Source: Ostreococcus lucimarinus
Taxonomy: Eukaryota
Assembly: GCA_000092065.1 (NCBI GenBank)
Contig: CP000584.1
DNA length: 64,000 nucleotides
Strand: one strand, 5' to 3'
A model generated the notes under the pieces. The model did not search any database. It was not told the origin of the DNA and saw nothing but the letters and a program-made list of their open reading frames with translations. Both the position numbers and the translations under genes were made by a program. Positions 3,701-62,014 of this stretch are shown piece by piece (the stretch's first letter is position 1; each line of letters starts with the position of its first letter).

Positions 3701-5044
3701 TCGCTCGTCTCGTGCTTGGCGCGAAGAATTCACTCGTACTGGACTCCGCAAGGGAGCGCGGCGATGCACAGTTGCCAATTAGGCGCGGCGCTTGGAATGA
3801 GCCCCGAAGAGAAGGCGGCGTATTTGATTCACGGTCCGGCGCGAACGCAAGTTCTCAACGAGGAAGAACCCGGGACGAGCACGACGGCGAGCGCGTCTCG
3901 CGATTGGATGCGATGCCTGCGCGATTGCTCGTACTCGGTCTTCGCGTTGTTCAGCATTCACGCTCCCGCGGCATTTTACCCGAACCAAGCCTTAGCGAGC
4001 GCGTGTGGTGGGTCTATGTTAGCTGATCTGCCGTACATGGAGCTCAGGCACGTTCGTCAAGTCGTGCACGCGGCGGTGCGACCGATCATGGGGCGGTGTC
4101 CGGCGGCGCATCGCGCGATGTGGCAGACGGCGCTCGTGAACCCGCTGTGCGCGGCGCTGCACGACCGCCTCGCCAAGGAATGGGCGAACACGCGCGTGGT
4201 GAACGCGACCAAGGCGCAAGAAAGAGGAGATGAAGACGACGAGACGGATGGCGTCGAGGTGAATGATTTGATTTCTGAACGAATTCTTCGCGACATCACG
4301 CGGGACCACTGCGCGATGCTCGCCATCGTCGCGGCTCCCGAAGGCACGTTCGGGCGCAAGACCAAAGGGAGTGGGTTGACTGGTGTCATGGGTGATATGT
4401 CAAACACGCTATTAGGGACATCGTACGCCGGAGGGAAACACATATTGGATTGGATCGCGCACGGTGACGCTAACGCGATTCGCGCCGGCATCGCCACGGG
4501 GGCCGCCGCGCTCACGTGGGAAGACGCGGAATCCACCGGCCACGCCGTGAACTTTGTGCGCGGGCTGTGTGCCGCCGCCGGGAGCGCGAACGCACCGCAA
4601 GCGTTGCGAGACAACGTCGGTTCAGATGTCTTCCAAGCCACCCTCGTGGCGCTGACGCAAAGCTCCAACGCCGCGCACCAAGCCGACATTCTCGGCTTGA
4701 TTCGCGACATCATCATTTGGCTCACCCCGAAGACGCAATCCGTGGTACAAATCTTGATGAGTCTTCCCGGAATGACGCAGCAAGCCCTCGATTCATGCGT
4801 GCGAGAGCTCGGTGCCATGCGAAGCGAGAAGAAAGCCGCTAATTTCGTCAAGGACTTCTTAATCAACGCCAGCGGAGGAGGAGAAGAGCTTCGCGCCCTC
4901 GTCGAGGCGCGTTCGCAAACCAACAAGAGCGGCGTCGCGATTCAAATACCGAAGACCGCCCCGCGAAATCCAGTGAAGCAATCGACGAGTCCGGACAATC
5001 ACGGTTTCTCCGCCGAGGCGGCGTCCAACGCGATCGGACTGTGA
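751..5044 (+). CDS. XPO5: Exportin-5 / HASTY homolog, 4 coding exons: join(751..852,966..1613,1834..3012,3254..5044), 1239 aa
   Basis: Track ORFs 25..927 (3' part), 771..1700, 1726..3063 and 3257..5044 are consecutive pieces of one protein. The proposed joins keep the frame, and the total of 3720 nt is divisible by 3. The protein is collinear with plant HASTY as I recall it: KSKAATLVAETVRQEG, YVAEDVAVYNEDMIGGKMRELL, AVYSEWAPLAPIMRSGLIEACGMLL|ASDEFRCAACDAL across intron 2, and a C-terminal SEKKAANFVKDFL block like the XPO5 tail. The exon 1/2 junction is the least certain. Confidence 0.8.
853..965 (+). other. Spliceosomal intron (exportin-5 intron 1, 113 nt)
   Basis: GTGCGA donor at 853, ACTGAC at 927..932, AAG acceptor ending at 965. 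The splice joins ..ELAREV to LKTGDARRAMEAC.. in phase 0. Confidence 0.55.
1614..1833 (+). other. Spliceosomal intron (exportin-5 intron 2, 220 nt)
   Basis: GTGCGT donor, ACTGAC at 1803..1808, CAG acceptor at 1831..1833, phase 0. It is AT-richer with T-runs. Its removal reproduces the conserved HASTY junction. Confidence 0.85.
3013..3253 (+). other. Spliceosomal intron (exportin-5 intron 3, 241 nt)
   Basis: GTACGT donor, ACTGAC at 3213..3218, CAG acceptor at 3251..3253, phase 0. It removes the stop at 3061..3063. Confidence 0.8.
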
Positions 5045-9319: not shown

Positions 9320-10930
9320 ATGGCGCTGACGTCGACGCGCGCGACGACGACGACGACGACGACGACGGCGCGCGACGACGCGCGACGACGACGCGCGCGA
9401 ACGACGCGAAAAAACGCGACGCGCGCGTTTCCCGCGCCGAGGGACGACGACGCGGCGACGACGACGGCGACGACGGCGCGGACGCGGAATCGAGGGCGGG
9501 CGCGGGTGAACGCGGGCGACGCGCTGCGAGGCTTGTGGAGAGAGATTAAGTATAAACCGCTGAGAGAGGATGAATCGATCGAGGCGGTGGCGCTGATGGC
9601 GGCGCTTGAACTGGCGCGACGAGGACCCGAACCGGGGGAGACGTGGACCGCGGAGCGAGAGGAGATGCGAGCGCGGGCGCGGGCGTCGATTCCGAGCGCG
9701 GTGGGGACGTATTGGCGAGCGAGGAGCGAGGCGCTGATTGAAAGTCAAGCGGTGCGGGACGCGGCGCCGTTGATGTCGAGCGCGGTGAACGTGGCGATCG
9801 CGGGGGTGGTGCTGCGGTTGTTTTTGCCGCGCGTCGCGGCGCTGCAAGCGGTGGGTGGGTTCGACGAGTTGACTGAATTTTTTGGGTTGCCGCCGAGGAG
9901 CGAGTTGAGCGGATATTTGGATCAGTTGCGAGCGTTGCCCGTGGCGGCGGTGTTCGCGGTGTACGTTGGGTTGTTCGTGGCGGAAAAGTTGACGATGACG
10001 GATGAGTTTTTGCCGATCGGCTTCGTGCTGCCCGTGGTGTCGCCGGTGGTGTTCGGCGGCGTCTTCGGAGGGACGATGGTGACGTCGCTGGCGAGCACGC
10101 TGGCGGCGAGCGTCAATTTCTTCCTCGCGCGGTACGTGTTGAAGGATAAGATATTAGGCTTTAAGTGGGGCGAAAGTGATCCCGTGGGCGAGCAAAAGTG
10201 GTTCGCCGCGCTGAGTCGAAGATTCGACTCGTCGCAATTCCCCGAGTCCACGGTGCCCGAGGGGTTCAAGTCGGCGCTCTTGCTCAGGCTGTGCCCGATT
10301 TTACCGATTCCGATAAGTGGGAACTGGTACGTGTGCGGGCTGACGCCTCTCAAATTCAAAGAGTTCTTCGCCGCGCACTTCATCGGAAGCTCGAAGACTG
10401 CGTTCATCGACGCGTATTTAGGTTCAATTTTGCTCACCGCGGTGTTCGACGAGTCATCCGTCAAGGACCAGGCGCAAGGCGCGCTCGTGTTCGAAACCGT
10501 CGCCATCATGGTTGTTTCCATCTTAGTCAGCACGTACGCCACGGAGCTCTTCACGCAGATTCTCGACGAAGAAGGCGTCGACGCGGGGGCGATGATGGGA
10601 TTCGGTTCGGAATCCAAAGACGAAGACGAAGGCGAAGACGCCGTCGACGCCACCGTCGCCTTCATCGCCGCCGCCGCCCTGCCCGTGGAACCAGCCGGCT
10701 CCACGGCGACGAGCGATGATGAACCGAAAGCCGACGACGACGAGAACGACGACGACGCCACGTCGAACGAACCTGAACTCATCCCAATCGAGCGCATGCC
10801 CGAGGATGAAAAAGTTTTAATCGCCGAAGGCGAAGCGCTCTGGCGACGCGCCGCGCGCGTCGAAGCCGAGCGTCAAAAGCTCACCATCGAAGAGATGACC
10901 GATTACGACTCCATGGGACCAGACATGTGA
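9320..10930 (+). CDS. TVP38/TMEM64 (DedA / SNARE-associated, VTT-domain) family membrane protein with a transit-peptide-like N-terminus and an acidic C-terminal tail
   Basis: The conserved part starts near 9530. The VTT-type motif is SALLLRLCPILPIPISGNWYVCGLTPLKFKEFFAAHFIGSSKTAFIDAYLGS, with several hydrophobic helices. I chose the in-frame ATG at 9320 (MALTSTRATTTT). The alternative ATG at 9161 would overlap the minus-strand ORF start. Confidence 0.65.
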   Translation: MALTSTRATTTTTTTTARDDARRRRARTTRKNATRAFPAPRDDDAATTTATTARTRNRGRARVNAGDALRGLWREIKYKPLREDESIEAVALMAALELARRGPEPGETWTAEREEMRARARASIPSAVGTYWRARSEALIESQAVRDAAPLMSSAVNVAIAGVVLRLFLPRVAALQAVGGFDELTEFFGLPPRSELSGYLDQLRALPVAAVFAVYVGLFVAEKLTMTDEFLPIGFVLPVVSPVVFGGVFGGTMVTSLASTLAASVNFFLARYVLKDKILGFKWGESDPVGEQKWFAALSRRFDSSQFPESTVPEGFKSALLLRLCPILPIPISGNWYVCGLTPLKFKEFFAAHFIGSSKTAFIDAYLGSILLTAVFDESSVKDQAQGALVFETVAIMVVSILVSTYATELFTQILDEEGVDAGAMMGFGSESKDEDEGEDAVDATVAFIAAAALPVEPAGSTATSDDEPKADDDENDDDATSNEPELIPIERMPEDEKVLIAEGEALWRRAARVEAERQKLTIEEMTDYDSMGPDM

Positions 10931-16566: not shown

Positions 16567-16706
16567 CGTCGTCGTGTGCGCGCGTTCGCCGTTCGTCGTC
16601 GCGCGCGTCGCGCCGTGACGCGTCGCGAATCGCAATCGTCAACCGTGCACGCATTCGTCGCCGCGGTGTCGGTTTGGATCGTTCCCCTCGTCGCGCGTGC
16701 CTACTT

Positions 16707-16776
16707 CCGGGTGTTTTCGCGCGCGCACACCCGGGTGTTTTCGCGCGCGCACACCCGGGTGTTTCGCGCGCGCGCC
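16707..16776. repeat. 24-bp tandem repeat (2 perfect copies plus 1 diverged copy) in a divergent promoter
   Basis: ccgggtgttttcgcgcgcgcacac occurs at 16707..16730 and 16731..16754, followed by ccgggtgtttcgcgcgcgcg. Each unit junction forms CCCGGG. Confidence 0.9.
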
Positions 16777-16913: not shown

Positions 16914-18875
16914 ATGGATGCGCCGCGGCGACCGTCCGGCGGCGGCGACGACGACGACGCGACGACGGCGCGCGCGACGACGACGACGGGCGCGAGCGAC
17001 GGAAGCGAAAAGTACGTCTCCGCGGCGACGCGGGCGCGACTGCGCGCGCGCGGGATCGACGCGTTGAACGCGATGCAGCTCGCGGTGTGCGAGGCGGCGG
17101 TCGGACGACGCGCGGACGCGACGTGTCGAGCGCCGACGGGGAGCGGGAAGACGCTGGCGTACGTGCTGCCGATCGCGAAGATGTTGGAGAGGGCGGCGCG
17201 CGACGGATCGGGGGGAGGCGGAGGCGGAGGCGCGGTGCGGGCGATGGTGGTGACGCCGACGCGGGAGCTGGCGAGTCAGGTGCGGACGCAGTGCGAGCGG
17301 TACTGCGGGGAGGGGTCGAGCGCGCTGTGCGTGGGAGGGACGAGCGCGAAGGCGCAGGAGGACGCGATTCGTAAGGGTGGGGCGAAGATTGTCGTCGGGA
17401 CGCCGGGGAGGATGAAGGAATTCATCGATCGGGGGGTGATCGAACCGCGCGCGGTGGAGATTCAGGTGTTGGACGAAATCGACCGCCTCCTCGACGGAGG
17501 GTTTGAGGGCGAGATCGACGCGGTGATGCGACCGCCCGGGACGTGTCAGACGCTTTGTTTTTCGGCGACGATCTCTGCGGCGTTGTCGAGATTTTTAGAT
17601 CGTAAACTCGTGCCCGGGTACGCGGAGGTGGTCGTCGCCGGACGAGGCGGCTCAAACGTGGGCGGGATGGTGGAGCACTTGGCGTACGCCACGAAGTCGG
17701 GAGACGACGCCGTCGGATCGGCGGTCGTGGACGCGTTAGAGCACTACGCGGGTGAGCACGTGGATGGGAGAGTCGGTGGTCAGGCGATCGTGTTCACGGA
17801 GACAAAGTCCACCGCGGAACGCGTCAGGGCGATGCTGACGAATATGTTGACGACGGTGCGTGCCTTTGAATTTTTCTCTTCTTTTTCGATCGAGTCGGTC
17901 GTCGATGACGAACAAACTATTAAGGGATTTATGAGATTGGAATCCGTTCCATGTTCGTACCAATAGACTACAATTCTCCGAGACGCCGACCTTCGAGACG
18001 CAGACGCAGACGAGCGCGTTTGTTCAATTTTTTCTCGTCCGAGTTCCAGAGGATTGCATGAATAATTCTTATCTACATTCCCTGAGATACCGGTGATTAC
18101 ACCTTTCAAGATGATGGAACTGCTTTGCGTTAGTTTTTTGACGCGCGCGCTCGCTCGCGTTCGATGGCGATGAAGATACACCTTATTTCACATGTTAGAC
18201 TGTCGAGATCGAGGGGTGAGGATCCTTCGATCGATGTGCACAACAATTCCGCCGAGCCATCGAATGCGGGCGAGGCAACCGATCTGACCCTCGTGCGCTC
18301 GCGATGACTGATTACCTTTTCCTTCTCGCGCGTAGGAATTCGACACTGGCAAACGAACTCGGCGAGTGGCGTCTTTACACGGCGACTTGCCGCAACCGGC
18401 GCGCGACGCGACGCTCGCGAACCTTCGCTCTGGCGAAGTCGACGTGCTCGTCGCTACAGACGTCGCCGCGCGTGGTCTCGATTTACCCGGAGTCGAGCTC
18501 GTCGTGCACGCAGACATGCCCAAATCTGCAGACACTTACTCGCACCGCGCCGGACGCGCCGGGCGTCCAGGGTGCGCCGTGCCCGGCGTTTCGTTGCTCA
18601 TCTCCCGACCCGAGCTCGCGTCTGAAATCACGCGCCTCGAGCGCGAAGCCAAGGTTTCGATTCGTCGTCTAGTGTTCATTGGCGAACGCGAACGCGTCGT
18701 CGTCACGGGTGACTTGGGCGCGAGCGTTTCCACGCTTGAGCCTGAAAGTCGCGAAAGCGCGCCCGCGAGACGGGACGACAGTCTCATCGCCGACCATTTC
18801 GCTCGCTTTGCGGATGACATTCAAAACATCGCGACGTCGAAGAAGAAAGGGAAATCGAAATCGCGCGGCAAATGA
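16914..18875 (+). CDS. DEAD-box (DEID variant) ATP-dependent RNA helicase, join(16914..17855,18336..18875), 493 aa
   Basis: Motifs in order: APTGSGKT, TPTRELA, GTPGR, LDEIDRLL and SAT in exon 1, then ATDVAARGLD and HRAGRAGR in exon 2. The track start 16674 is TTG; the first ATG is 16914. Confidence 0.85.
17856..18335 (+). other. Spliceosomal intron (helicase, 480 nt, AT-rich)
   Basis: GTGCGT donor, ACTGAT at 18307..18312, a pyrimidine tract and a TAG acceptor at 18333..18335, phase 0. The splice joins ..MLTNMLTT to EFDTGKRTRRVASLHGDL.., which completes the helicase core. Confidence 0.85.
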
Positions 18876-27526: not shown

Positions 27527-30019
27527 ATGTCCGCCGCGACGAAAGCCGCCGAGCGCGACGCCCTGGAGCGACTCCAGCGCGACGTGCGCAAGCACGCGCG
27601 CGACGAGAGCGTCGAGATCGATGCCGCGCGCGGCTGGCGCGTTACGTTTACCGAGCGCAAAACGGGCGCGCAAGCGGGGACATTTTACAAAGAGTTTTAC
27701 GCCCCCGACGGCACGCGGTTTCGAAGCGCCAAAGAAGTCTGCGCGCACGTCCAACAGATTCGAGGGATGAAGCGTAAAGCGCTGAAAGCGAGCGCGGGAT
27801 CGGGAAAGGAGAAAGGAAGCGGGAAGGGCGATGGAAAGGCGAAACGGGGGAGGCCGAGCGCGAGCGCGGAAACCGAGAACGAGGCGGACGCGCTGGAGAA
27901 ACTGTACGCGTACGTGAAGAACACGGCTGGTCGTGATATACGTCATCACGGTTGGGGCGTGGTGTTCGTGGAGCGGAAGTCGGGGGCGCTGGCTGGGCAG
28001 GTGTATAAAGACTACTTGACGCCGTGCGGGAACAAAGTACGGTCGATGAAGGAGGTGATGGTGTACTTGGCGGGGGTGAAGTCGCCGCAATCGAAAAAGA
28101 AGATTCGTCGTGACGATGGGAGCGTGGAGGAGGAGATGGAGGCGGAACCGACCGAGGCGGAGCTTCAAGCGTTGGAAATGAAGATTACAGAAGAGCACGC
28201 GGCGGCGATTACCAGAGCCGTGCCAGCGTTACCGGCGCGCACGCAATCCGTGCAAGTGACTGGCCTAGAATTAGACGATGATATGGATGAGGATCGGTTG
28301 CTTGTTGAATTTAGCAACATCACCGGACTCGAACCGGTGTATGAAACCTTGGAAGAGCTGCGGGAAATGGTGAATAAAGAGCGCGCTCGGGCGGCGGCGA
28401 AAAACGAGGCGATGGAGTTCAATTTCAAGCCGCCAACGACGCGCGCGCCGCGACCTTCTCTCGAAGCGCTGCCAAATGGGCTGAGCTACGCCGCGAAGGA
28501 AGTCGATGAGACGAAGAAGGCGGATCAGTTGGCGTTAATTCAACGCTTTCAGAAGGAAAGCAAAATCATGAATAAGCTTGGAGATGCTTCCAAAGCCGAT
28601 TGGAGAGGTGAAGCGCGCGTACCGAAAGTTTTGGGAGACACATCGGTTCCGGATGTTGTGCGTGGGGGTACGCGCGCCGGAGCGACGCCCATGATTGCGG
28701 GAACGGCGGCGGAAATCAAACTTTTACCGAGCACGACTGAGATTGATTACGACGGCGCTGAGGACAGGCCTCCGTTCGATCCCACTGATACGAGCTCGGT
28801 GACGACGCTCAAGGCAGCCATGCATACATCAACGGCGCCGGATGAAGTGCGGTGTCGCGAAGATGAGCGCGCGAAAGTGATCGATTTGATTCAAGGGTGC
28901 TTGCGTGATCACAAACCGGGCAGTCTGTATCTCGCCGGACTGCCAGGGACGGGGAAAACACTCACGCTCAAAGACGTTCAGAGAACAACGGAAAGATGGG
29001 GTATCGTAGGTAAGACTCGACCCCGTGTAGCTTTCATCAACTGCATGTCCGTGCACAACGCCAAAGATATTTTTGGAGTCGTTTTAGATCAACTTGGCGA
29101 AAGAGTTGCATCTGAAGACCGAGCGCCAAGCGTGGGATCCATAGAATACAGCAATATCCCAGAAGTCGTGGCGTTGAGAAGAGTAGTGACTTCGATGAAC
29201 GGTGGAATGTGCATCATTCTGCTCGATGAGATGGATCAACTCGAAACACGAGATCAAGAGGTTTTGTACGAGCTGTTTGCTTTGCCCGCACTCAAGGGAT
29301 CACGATGCGTTTTAGCGGGAGTCTCCAACGCGATCAATCTCACCGATCGCGTGCTGCCTAGATTGCGCGCTCGTGGATGCGAGCCTGCACTCGTAACGTT
29401 TTCTGCGTACGATGCCAAGCAGCTCAAGGTATTGCTGAAACAGCGCCTCGCGGCGCTTCCATTCAAGGCTTTCGAGGACTCTGCGTTGGAATTGTGTTCG
29501 CGGAAAGTAGGCGCGGCGACGGGCGACATGCGAAAGGCGCTCAACGTGTGCGCCACCGCCGTCGACATATGCGTGCAAGAAGCGACGAAGATCTCAGAGG
29601 ATGGTAGCGAAGCGCCCGCCTCGGCCAAGGGCACTGTGAAGATTTCCCACATGGCGCGCGCGCTTTCAAAAACGTACGCATCGCCAGTCGTGGACTCAAT
29701 CCGGGCATTGCCGCAAATGCAACAGATGGTCCTGTGTTCGGCGATAAAACTTTTGAGCAGTACGCACGCCATGGAGACGACGTTAGGGGCTTTGCATGAT
29801 CGATACGTCATCACTTGCAAGACAGCCGGTGTCAAGGATCTATCTCAAGGTGAGTTCCACAACATGTGCAGCGCGCTCTCGGATCATTGTTTGGTTAAGA
29901 TTGGGAATGCGAGTAACGATCGATTGCGCAAGCTACGATTGCTCGCCACGCGAGATGATGTGGAGTTTTCACTCCAAGGTGTGAACTTCTTCCGCAACTT
30001 ATTAGGGATCAACGAGTAG
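27527..30019 (+). CDS. ORC1/CDC6-family AAA+ replication initiator with two N-terminal MBD-like domains and an AT-hook (830 aa)
   Basis: Single uninterrupted ATG ORF. The C-terminal half has SLYLAGLPGTGKT (Walker A, about 28936..28959), ILLDEMDQL (Walker B), VSNAINLTDRVLPRL, GDMRKALNVC (sensor 2) and a winged-helix tail. Features of both CDC6 (DEMDQL) and ORC1 (KAFEDSALELCSRKV) are present. The N-terminal modules are listed as separate features. Confidence 0.85.
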   Translation: MSAATKAAERDALERLQRDVRKHARDESVEIDAARGWRVTFTERKTGAQAGTFYKEFYAPDGTRFRSAKEVCAHVQQIRGMKRKALKASAGSGKEKGSGKGDGKAKRGRPSASAETENEADALEKLYAYVKNTAGRDIRHHGWGVVFVERKSGALAGQVYKDYLTPCGNKVRSMKEVMVYLAGVKSPQSKKKIRRDDGSVEEEMEAEPTEAELQALEMKITEEHAAAITRAVPALPARTQSVQVTGLELDDDMDEDRLLVEFSNITGLEPVYETLEELREMVNKERARAAAKNEAMEFNFKPPTTRAPRPSLEALPNGLSYAAKEVDETKKADQLALIQRFQKESKIMNKLGDASKADWRGEARVPKVLGDTSVPDVVRGGTRAGATPMIAGTAAEIKLLPSTTEIDYDGAEDRPPFDPTDTSSVTTLKAAMHTSTAPDEVRCREDERAKVIDLIQGCLRDHKPGSLYLAGLPGTGKTLTLKDVQRTTERWGIVGKTRPRVAFINCMSVHNAKDIFGVVLDQLGERVASEDRAPSVGSIEYSNIPEVVALRRVVTSMNGGMCIILLDEMDQLETRDQEVLYELFALPALKGSRCVLAGVSNAINLTDRVLPRLRARGCEPALVTFSAYDAKQLKVLLKQRLAALPFKAFEDSALELCSRKVGAATGDMRKALNVCATAVDICVQEATKISEDGSEAPASAKGTVKISHMARALSKTYASPVVDSIRALPQMQQMVLCSAIKLLSSTHAMETTLGALHDRYVITCKTAGVKDLSQGEFHNMCSALSDHCLVKIGNASNDRLRKLRLLATRDDVEFSLQGVNFFRNLLGINE
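27551..27757 (+). other. MBD-like module 1 (residues about 9-77)
   Basis: GWRVTFTERKTGAQAGTFYKEFYAPDGTRFRSAKEVCAHV compared with MeCP2 [40 protein letters not shown]. Confidence 0.65.
27842..27856 (+). other. AT-hook core KRGRP
   Basis: GKAKRGRPSAS lies between the two MBD-like modules. Confidence 0.5.
27881..28075 (+). other. MBD-like module 2 (residues about 119-183)
   Basis: GWGVVFVERKSGALAGQVYKDYLTPCGNKVRSMKEVMVYL. It is preceded by EADALEKLYAYV, which parallels ERDALERLQRDV before module 1. Confidence 0.65.
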
Positions 30020-59506: not shown

Positions 59507-59560
59507 CTCAAAATTCAAATCCTTGGCGCGGCTGTTTGAATTCCAAATTCAAACCGGCGC
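59507..59560 (+). promoter_or_regulatory. Motif cluster upstream of the claspin-like gene: AAATTCAAA x2, inverted TTTGAATT, and GC cores TTGGCGCG / CCGGCGCC
   Basis: Direct reading: ctcaaaattcaaatccttggcgcggctgtttgaattccaaattcaaaccggcgcc, 64-117 nt upstream of ATG 59624. TTGGCGCG resembles an E2F site (TTTSSCGC). Confidence 0.35.
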
Positions 59561-59623
59561 CCGCACACGCACGCGCGCGCGGCGCGCGGGCGAGCGTTGA
59601 CGACGACGATCGCAACGACGACG

Positions 59624-61831: not shown

Positions 61832-62014
61832 CGAAGATAAGCGCACGATGATTTGAATAAGGTGATTTTTACTGCAAACATTCACTCTAAACACACCTCA
61901 TCTCACTAATGCAAAGAGCGCGACGCGCTCTTCCGCTCCTATCGCCACGAGTTTCTCGACACACCTAACTGATTGAACACGTAACCGAGTCGTATTGATT
62001 GAATACCTTCCCGT

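Follow-up and report, generated by a model that had tools for sequence, protein, structure and literature searches.

Do the promoters of two replication genes in Ostreococcus lucimarinus share a regulatory element, and if so, what kind of protein would read it? The question arises from a stretch of 64,000 nucleotides (nt) of contig CP000584.1 (here called the window), a region of densely packed genes with a GC content of 62%. For this stretch an initial annotation had proposed a cell-cycle cis-element, composed of the nine-letter word AAATTCAAA and an E2F-like GC core, ahead of an ORC1/CDC6-like gene and a claspin/Mrc1-like gene. One part of that proposal stood, as a conserved hexamer is found at the replication genes, while the composite of the 9-mer with an E2F-like core did not. 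The underlying observation is real: in Ostreococcus-type algae, both the ORC1/CDC6 gene and the claspin/Mrc1 gene carry a conserved short promoter-proximal cis-element with the core TTCAAA/TTTGAA (TTYRAA). It very probably serves these genes as a functional element of the promoter or leader. Judging from sequence, we see a roughly even chance that it is a promoter element of CHR type (for cell cycle genes homology region), belonging to a DREAM/MuvB-like system with a CXC-protein reader on cell-cycle genes.

A gene map of the window, for which codon statistics and Pfam were combined with the genes called on identical metagenome contigs, defines 38 intergenic spacers with a total of 7035 nt. The strings quoted in the initial annotation were all found in the sequence where it had placed them, and its expectation that AAATTCAAA should occur well under once is confirmed by dinucleotide-preserving shuffles of the window, which contain a mean of 0.27 copies and never reach the observed five (0/100). 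The observed number itself had been given as four, a minus-strand copy at 17865-17873 having been overlooked in a count on both strands. This fifth copy falls within what is probably an intron of a DEAD-box helicase gene, directly after a GTGCGTG splice-donor-like site; the intron, approximately 475 nt in length (17861-18335), separates the DEAD and Helicase_C exons. With the shorter core considered by itself, five of the nine TTCAAA, TTTGAA or TTCGAA matches in window spacers are inside the ORC1 and claspin spacers, which together make up 334 of the 7035 nt. In the claspin spacer, the TTTGAA copy at 59535 and the second copy of the 9-mer form an imperfect palindrome (DNA hairpin z = -2.6).

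The evidence that carries the element beyond the window comes from orthologous promoters. We compared the ORC1 loci of the window, O. tauri, L007, L008/L009, L010 and L137, and the claspin loci of the window, L011, L012-L014, L135 (Bathycoccus prasinos) and L136 (GC 0.61). Absence of the motif from the orthologous promoters of sister species had been named beforehand as the outcome that would speak against it; instead, the hexamer is present in every orthologous spacer fetched. In the sibling species L011, whose claspin protein is 88% identical to that of the window, the claspin spacer is 90% identical and all three hexamers are intact. The palindrome is even improved there, with TTTGAATTC-C-GAATTCAAA as a perfect inverted repeat of 9 bp. 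The claspin proteins of L012-L014 are 53-59% identical to the window protein. Except for L011, the spacers are not alignable with those of the window, yet each holds TTCAAA or TTTGAA. What is conserved is thus not AAATTCAAA, as originally supposed, but the hexamer TTCAAA/TTTGAA (TTYRAA): the O. tauri ORC1 spacer reads cacttTTCAAAtTTCAAAcaat, that of L008 reads gaTTCAAAtttgtgcgagg (its close relative L009 shows tttgcgcgagg at the same place), that of L010 reads cttcaTTCAAAcctcc, and the L137 lineage has two hexamer copies. Among the claspin spacers, L012 has cgcggggaagaTTTGAAaa, L013 has cTTTCGCGCggcgggttgaaatTTCAAAaaa, and L014 has four TTCAAA/TTTGAA hexamers together with one TTCGAA and TTTCGCGC.

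To place these occurrences against their background, control spacers were drawn from the same loci as the target spacers. The hexamer density is 8.2/kb in seven orthologous target spacers and 1.0/kb in 78 control spacers (Poisson 2e-8, uncorrected for shared ancestry). When targets are restricted to lineage-distinct spacers, TTCAAA/TTTGAA is present in eight of eight versus 15 of 102 controls (Fisher 1.2e-6, approximately 2.5e-3 after Bonferroni correction), and with all 2080 strand-symmetric hexamers counted without a prior it ranks first, the runner-up reaching 2e-4. The initial annotation had cautioned that AT-rich islands inflate the expected number, a caveat that we addressed by shuffling every spacer on its own dinucleotide composition. 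By this measure the eight spacers outside the discovery set, all of which hold the hexamer, give a joint P of 5e-7, and the three hexamers of the window claspin spacer are reached in none of 3000 shuffles. The window ORC1 spacer is short and AT-rich (GC 0.44), and its lone TTCAAA is not significant by itself (P = 0.20); its significance derives from conservation in other species.

The sequence specificity of the element is TTYRAA. Target spacers hold 16 copies of TTTGAA/TTCAAA where 1.9 are expected (p = 2e-10), and with this main word masked they show TTTAAA (2 observed, 0.2 expected, p = 0.017) and TTCGAA (3 observed, 0.8 expected, p = 0.047) in excess as well, while none of the 16 one-mismatch neighbours outside TTYRAA is enriched in the same spacers (all p > 0.15). 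This specificity bears directly on whether the hexamer is a generic core-promoter feature of a GC-rich genome, comparable to a TATA-like AT-rich patch. Such a patch would indeed be an AT-rich, promoter-proximal word in a 62% GC genome, and the overall AT-richness of the window ORC1 spacer fits it. We nevertheless consider this reading very improbable, as other AT-rich hexamers, the one-mismatch neighbours included, are not enriched in the targets, and 87 of the 102 control spacers lack the hexamer even though most of them hold promoters. Two further words, CGACAG and AGACGG, were found in five of eight target spacers and seven of 102 controls, a difference that is not significant after multiple-test correction. 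They are located mostly just 3' of hexamers (window 27503-27512, CGACAGACGG; L014 approximately 3975-3990) and may represent a start-site-region word.

The position of the element indicates which gene it serves. Across the ORC1/CDC6 and claspin/Mrc1 spacers the hexamers lie 42-250 nt 5' of the start codons, in one to four copies. In four of six lineages the hexamer nearest to the ORC1 ATG is 42, 47/54, 50 or 58 nt away, in contrast to a distance from the upstream stop codon that varies from 48 to 178 nt. Hexamers are also present where the upstream neighbour is divergent and the spacer consequently has no 3' end (L135, L136 and L137). The element is tied to the downstream gene and not to the upstream one, and its steady distance from the ATG together with its presence in divergent spacers argues for a promoter or leader role rather than that of a terminator. 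In L009 and L137 the hexamer is 229-249 nt from the true ORC1 ATG (near 10040 in L009). Approximately 190 extra nt separate hexamer and ORC1 start (MTPEEREAL...) in these two loci (L009 about 9865-10036, L137 about 1440-1610); the segment opens with GTGCGCG, resembling local splice donors, is missing from the otherwise near-identical L008 (1417-1432), and could represent an intron of the 5' leader or else a mobile insertion.

The same distances help to judge whether the hexamer could instead be a 3'-end or polyadenylation signal of the upstream gene, or simply a chance product of AT-rich spacers. Both window spacers are tandem (+ +), so that the upstream genes have their 3' ends there as well. 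In addition, a TTTGAA is kept in three species (window 61852-61857, L011 12340, L013 12321) in the convergent, purely 3' spacer between the claspin-like gene and the gene for ribosomal protein S3, where no promoter is expected. A signal of the upstream gene is, however, at odds with the variable distance from the upstream stop codon, with the conserved distance from the downstream ATG and with the copies kept in divergent spacers, while chance is rejected by the shuffles and control spacers. Taken together, these two explanations are hardly credible.

A role in the transcript has more in its favor, although it too appears improbable. Here UUCAAA in the 5' leader, sometimes forming a UUUGAAUU/AAUUCAAA hairpin, would govern how these mRNAs are translated or how stable they are. 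Such an element would fit the strong preference for TTCAAA over TTTGAA on the sense strand (16 versus 3, p = 0.004), it could fall within a short leader in the four ORC1 lineages with 42-58 nt between hexamer and ATG, and it is compatible with the hairpin potential of the claspin spacers of the window, L011, L013 and L014, where the copies are inverted repeats. The architecture is nonetheless variable, with hairpin potential in some orthologs only. The ORC1 copies of the window and O. tauri are direct repeats with a 7-8 nt period and no hairpin, single copies are found elsewhere, and copy number, spacing and orientation differ freely between species, unlike those of a structured RNA. The inverted copies in several promoters and the long distance to the ATG in L009 and L137 are likewise difficult to reconcile with a leader element. 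No Rfam match was found in the window, and this result and the variable layout speak against a structured RNA.

If the element acts at the level of DNA, which known site does it resemble? In its letters, the hexamer is the animal CHR (LIN54) consensus, a likeness that was not recognised in the initial annotation, and by this match the closest known relative of the element is the CHR site of DREAM/MuvB. Biochemical and structural studies of LIN54's DNA-binding domain on the CHR define the consensus TTYRAA, mostly TTTGAA; LIN54 binds a single TTYRAA as a monomer, one tyrosine per CXC domain reads the TT and AA steps, and CHR function is lost when the outer TT or AA is altered (PMC4974476). In the mechanism that we propose, a protein of the LIN54/TSO1/TCX type, with its two CXC domains in tandem, would read the TT and AA steps of TTYRAA through the minor groove and would tether to the promoter a MuvB/DREAM-like complex that includes the RB, E2F and DP (one each) of these algae. 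Neighboring E2F/CDE-like GC cores (CDE, cell cycle-dependent element) would assist where present. The genes would then be kept repressed except in the division window, and released or activated when the cell commits to S phase. We infer CXC binding, the DREAM-like complex and the cell-cycle timing alike. Several components of such a system have been described in the green lineage: RB, E2F and DP are present in O. tauri, and TCX5 belongs to plant DREAM complexes (PMC7527812); RB controls S-phase commitment in O. tauri (PMC2873908); and loss of the Chlamydomonas CXC protein CHT7 de-represses DNA-replication and mitotic genes (PMC8895990). Plant G2/M control has been attributed to mitosis-specific activator (MSA) and E2F elements. 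The literature consulted ties no DNA element to green-lineage CXC proteins and gives no TCX motif sequence.

The other known motifs considered do not fit the hexamer. A heat-shock element needs GAAnnTTC, a STAT/GAS (gamma-activated sequence) site needs TTCnnnGAA, and the TCF/LEF word WWCAAAG requires a G, which follows none of the hexamers. The MSA element bound by MYB3R has no AACGG/CCGTT core inside the motif block, with single cores scattered at unrelated positions in 6 of 13 spacers. Forkhead sites and the evening element were also considered and rejected; forkhead factors are not known from plants.

The GC cores adjacent to the hexamers had been described as part of the shared element. 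In the window and several orthologs they do lie close to it, as GGCGCGG-ctg-TTTGAA in the window, cgcgggg-aaga-TTTGAA in L012 and, on the minus strand, gcgg-agg-TTTGAA in L010. The window arrangement, GGCGCGG followed after 3 nt by TTTGAA, resembles the CDE/CHR modules of human CDK1 and p107, the CDK1 CDE being quoted as TAGCGCGGT and TTGGCGC being the CDE/E2F site of the p107 promoter (PMC4974476). Conservation of hybrid E2F and LIN-54 motifs among worm, fly and human has been reported (PMC3093354). Conservation among the algae does not extend to these cores, as L011 has CTCGGCGGGC in place of TTGGCGCGG and CATCATCC in place of CCGGCGCC with the hexamers unaltered. The replacement of CCGGCGCC places this second GC core probably outside the element. 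The string TTGGCGCG matches TTTSSCGC at seven of eight positions in the window, a match that is lost in L011. E2F was not retained as the common element, with no GC-rich or E2F-type word enriched in the target spacers, and a CDE/CHR tandem was rejected because its defining fixed 4-nt spacing is not observed and many hexamers have no GC core. We conclude that E2F-like GC cores are weakly associated with the element. Canonical E2F words do occur elsewhere in the window: three tandem repeats of approximately 24 nt (CCGGGTGTTTTCGCGCGCGCACA; 16700-16775), each with the word TTTCGCGC, sit in a spacer flanked divergently by a GRAM-domain gene (minus) and a DEAD-box helicase gene (plus).

A CHR-type element presupposes a reader, and a candidate protein was found in related DNA. 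A homolog search with an alignment of two CXC sequences gave no Ostreococcus-labelled match among the 120 matches listed. We therefore sought the gene by scanning metagenome DNA for CLKxYCEC in GC-biased codons, which yielded 120 contigs. Three of these (L100, L040 and L068; GC 0.61-0.65) encode a LIN54-type protein with the Pfam TCR domain twice. Their tetranucleotide signatures correlate with the window at 0.89-0.92 (0.92 for L100), values that known Ostreococcus loci also show among themselves and that unrelated contigs do not approach. On L100 the protein is complete at 416 amino acids (aa), carries the minor-groove tyrosine in both of its TCR/CXC domains and shares 54% identity with the DNA-binding domain of human LIN54. 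A second, TSO1-like family (L102, L106 and L116) has the same signature, and L133 is a Bathycoccus-like counterpart of the LIN54-like contigs.

Upstream regions of LIN54-like genes (L133, L061 and L120), in turn, contain TTYRAA. When Mamiellales-like DNA amounting to 325 kb was scanned post hoc for pairs of TTYRAA words no more than 9 nt apart, the matches comprised the target promoters, a few coding sites and sites upstream of the LIN54-like gene, of the gene for a protein with an MCM3-type winged helix (L008 and L009) and of a gene on L068. Ahead of the LIN54-like gene, L133 (64-76) reads TTCAAAaTTCGAA and the related, likewise Bathycoccus-like L061 (474-486) reads TTTGAAtTTCGAA; one hexamer has been flipped between the two, from TTCAAA to TTTGAA, and is still TTYRAA, with the adjoining TTCGAA unchanged. 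On L120, ggcgcgTTTGAA is found about 110 nt ahead of the CXC gene start. These sites hint at a possible autoregulation of the LIN54-like CXC gene. On L068, four to five copies of TTCAAATC follow one another head to tail (4910-4952), approximately 30 nt ahead of the start codon of a gene (4102-4875, minus) whose 257-aa product has a destruction box of the cyclin-B/securin type, RAALGNITN, and no Pfam family; it is possibly a substrate of the anaphase-promoting complex/cyclosome (APC/C) under the same element. The post hoc paired-site matches point the same way as a CHR-type reading.

It is against these data that a different DNA-binding factor, for instance a Myb/SANT, HMG or lineage-specific protein, has to be weighed. 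The cis-element would then be genuine and its match to the CHR a coincidence of a short AT-rich word. We regard this as a less likely alternative. The word has just 6 bp, the direct repeats (7-8 bp period) and palindromes are typical of dimeric or multimeric factors whereas LIN54 is a monomer, TTTGAA is followed by A/T in 14 of 16 copies (counted by eye), the orientation bias is strong, and a 2019 review states that CHR elements have not yet been identified in plants (PMC6927116). Conversely, the enrichment across all one-mismatch variants fits TTYRAA exactly, the flipped hexamer of L133 and L061 remains TTYRAA as expected of a pseudo-symmetric reader, and the heat-shock, STAT, TCF/LEF, forkhead and MSA motifs do not fit.

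Several observations also weigh directly against a CHR-type element. The systematic comparison rests on two gene families, and the dCMP deaminase promoter has no hexamer copy in the window, O. tauri or L010. The single Bathycoccus copy is not significant (P = 0.78) and is uninformative because the spacer is AT-rich (36% GC). With TTCAAA preferred on the sense strand, the algal copies mostly run opposite to what is classical in animals, CDE-N4-TTTGAA on the sense strand, and such a strand bias would also suit an RNA-level element. In animals, moreover, the CHR alone marks mainly G2/M genes. A GC core is located no more than 11 nt 5' of TTTGAA at 6 of 16 target hexamers and at 21 of 130 elsewhere (p = 0.05), the exact word TTTSSCGC occurs in 2 of 13 target spacers (L013 and L014 only), and the spacing between CDE and CHR varies, being 3 nt in the window, 6 in L011, 4 in L012 and 0 in L013 and L014. 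Finally, the LIN54-like contigs are assigned to Ostreococcus by k-mer signature alone.

The features of the window are collected in the table below.

Coordinates of the motif copies, GC cores and downstream genes in the window.
Feature	Position	Strand	Remarks
AAATTCAAA, copy 1	59511-59519	+	core TTCAAA 59514-59519, 110 nt 5' of the claspin-like ATG; unaltered in sibling species L011
TTGGCGCGG, E2F/CDE-like GC core	59523-59531	+	3 nt 5' of the TTTGAA hexamer; not kept in L011
TTGGCGCG	59523-59530	+	E2F-like string quoted in the initial annotation
TTTGAA, canonical CHR word	59535-59540	+	within inverted copy AATTCAAA, reading TTTGAATT at 59535-59542
AAATTCAAA, copy 2	59545-59553	+	core TTCAAA 59548-59553, 76 nt 5' of the claspin-like ATG
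CCGGCGCC, second GC core	59554-59561	+	CATCATCC instead in L011
AAATTCAAAAATTCGAACGCG	27482-27502	+	within the 90-nt spacer ahead of the ORC1/CDC6-like ATG at 27527
AAATTCAAA	27482-27490	+	core TTCAAA 27485-27490, 42 nt 5' of the ORC1/CDC6-like ATG
AAATTCGAA, near-copy	27490-27498	+	core TTCGAA (TTYRAA variant) 27493-27498, then CGCG 27499-27502
ORC1/CDC6-family gene, 830 aa	27527-30019	+	Pfam AAA+, Cdc6_C winged helix, MBD stretches; presumed regulated gene
Claspin/Mrc1-like gene, 732 aa	59624-61822	+	acidic, invariant DEAEMSEDGGHT motif; presumed regulated gene

Both downstream genes had been taken for replication genes, an assignment that is supported by the AAA+ and Cdc6_C domains of the first and by MRC1-like distant homologs of the second. 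The ORC1/CDC6 protein recurs with identical sequence in marine metagenome assemblies, where more than 1000 blocks encode it, and is 61% identical to an O. tauri protein, and the order of about 15 genes around it is shared with O. tauri contig CAID01000004.2. Its N-terminal part carries methyl-CpG-binding (Pfam MBD) stretches at residues approximately 141-182; these are precomputed for nearly all Ostreococcus orthologs, and the O. tauri ortholog bears the name 'Methyl-CpG DNA binding'. It would be unusual for a protein of origin licensing to read CpG methylation. The claspin-like protein itself has no Pfam match (E up to 5) and no PDB match by sequence profile. A family profile of 18 aligned members was searched against 1.84 billion representative proteins, and of the ten longest distant matches seven carry the Pfam PF09444 MRC1-like domain above the curated cut-off, the domain falling within the region matched by the profile. 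On this profile evidence the second gene is a real claspin/Mrc1 relative.

Immediately upstream of ORC1 is the gene for the MCM3-type winged-helix protein (window 26411-27436), an acidic protein of 341 aa with the winged helix at its C-terminus and no PDB match. It precedes ORC1 in all Ostreococcus loci for which that flank is available. Its own upstream spacer holds an inverted pair, TTTGAAAATCTTCAAA, in L008 (134-149) and L009 (8550-8565), and no such pair in the window or O. tauri.

What would a CHR-type element in these algae mean? The DREAM/MuvB proteins are conserved from animals to plants, while the in vivo DNA word of plant and algal CXC proteins has been described as unidentified (PMC6927116). 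The broader proposal is that a CHR code is at work in the green lineage: a LIN54-type CXC protein of the Mamiellophyceae would read TTYRAA at several cell-cycle genes, the proposed targets being the replication genes, the APC/C-substrate-like gene and the LIN54-like gene itself. We offer it tentatively, as plausible and somewhat short of probable. The evidence spans a handful of genes, and the regulon is a well-founded hypothesis rather than a demonstrated one. If the proposal is true, the cis-regulatory grammar of DREAM/MuvB, beyond its proteins, would be older than the plant-animal split, and Ostreococcus, in which RB, E2F and DP are each a single gene, would constitute a minimal system for dissecting the CHR code. 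A conserved TTYRAA on the replication-gene promoters of the smallest free-living eukaryote would offer a concrete, mutable target in an organism that is already transformable with luciferase reporters and in which RB gates S-phase entry (PMC2873908). In metagenomes of marine picoplankton, cell-division genes could moreover be predicted with the element as a ready marker.

Comparison with known systems brings out both the likeness and the differences. The algal element shares with the animal CHR the consensus TTYRAA, a promoter-proximal location at genes with cell-cycle functions and phylogenetic conservation. As in animal CDE/CHR modules, several algal copies have GC-rich, CDE/E2F-like cores a few nucleotides 5' of TTTGAA, and a LIN54-like protein of CXC-hinge-CXC organization is encoded on contigs with an Ostreococcus-like signature. 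In contrast, the animal CHR is classically associated with the G2/M gene set and the algal element with G1/S replication genes; the algal hexamer is mostly in the opposite orientation (sense-strand TTCAAA) and often forms homotypic clusters, direct repeats or palindromes; and its GC-core spacing is not fixed, with the core absent at many copies. A second point of comparison is the combination of an E2F site with a CHR-like element (E2F/CLE) in promoters of early cell-cycle genes, together with the hybrid E2F/DP and LIN-54 motif at C. elegans DRM targets. An E2F-like core is likewise combined with TTYRAA in the window, L012, L013 and L014. Mammalian E2F/CLE promoters have the E2F site as their main element, whereas in the algae TTYRAA is the conserved partner and the E2F-like core the variable one; the paper defining E2F/CLE promoters reportedly lists Orc1 among its examples. 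Within the green lineage, Arabidopsis TCX5, TCX6 and TSO1, which act in DREAM-like complexes, and Chlamydomonas CHT7 belong to the same family as the proposed algal reader.

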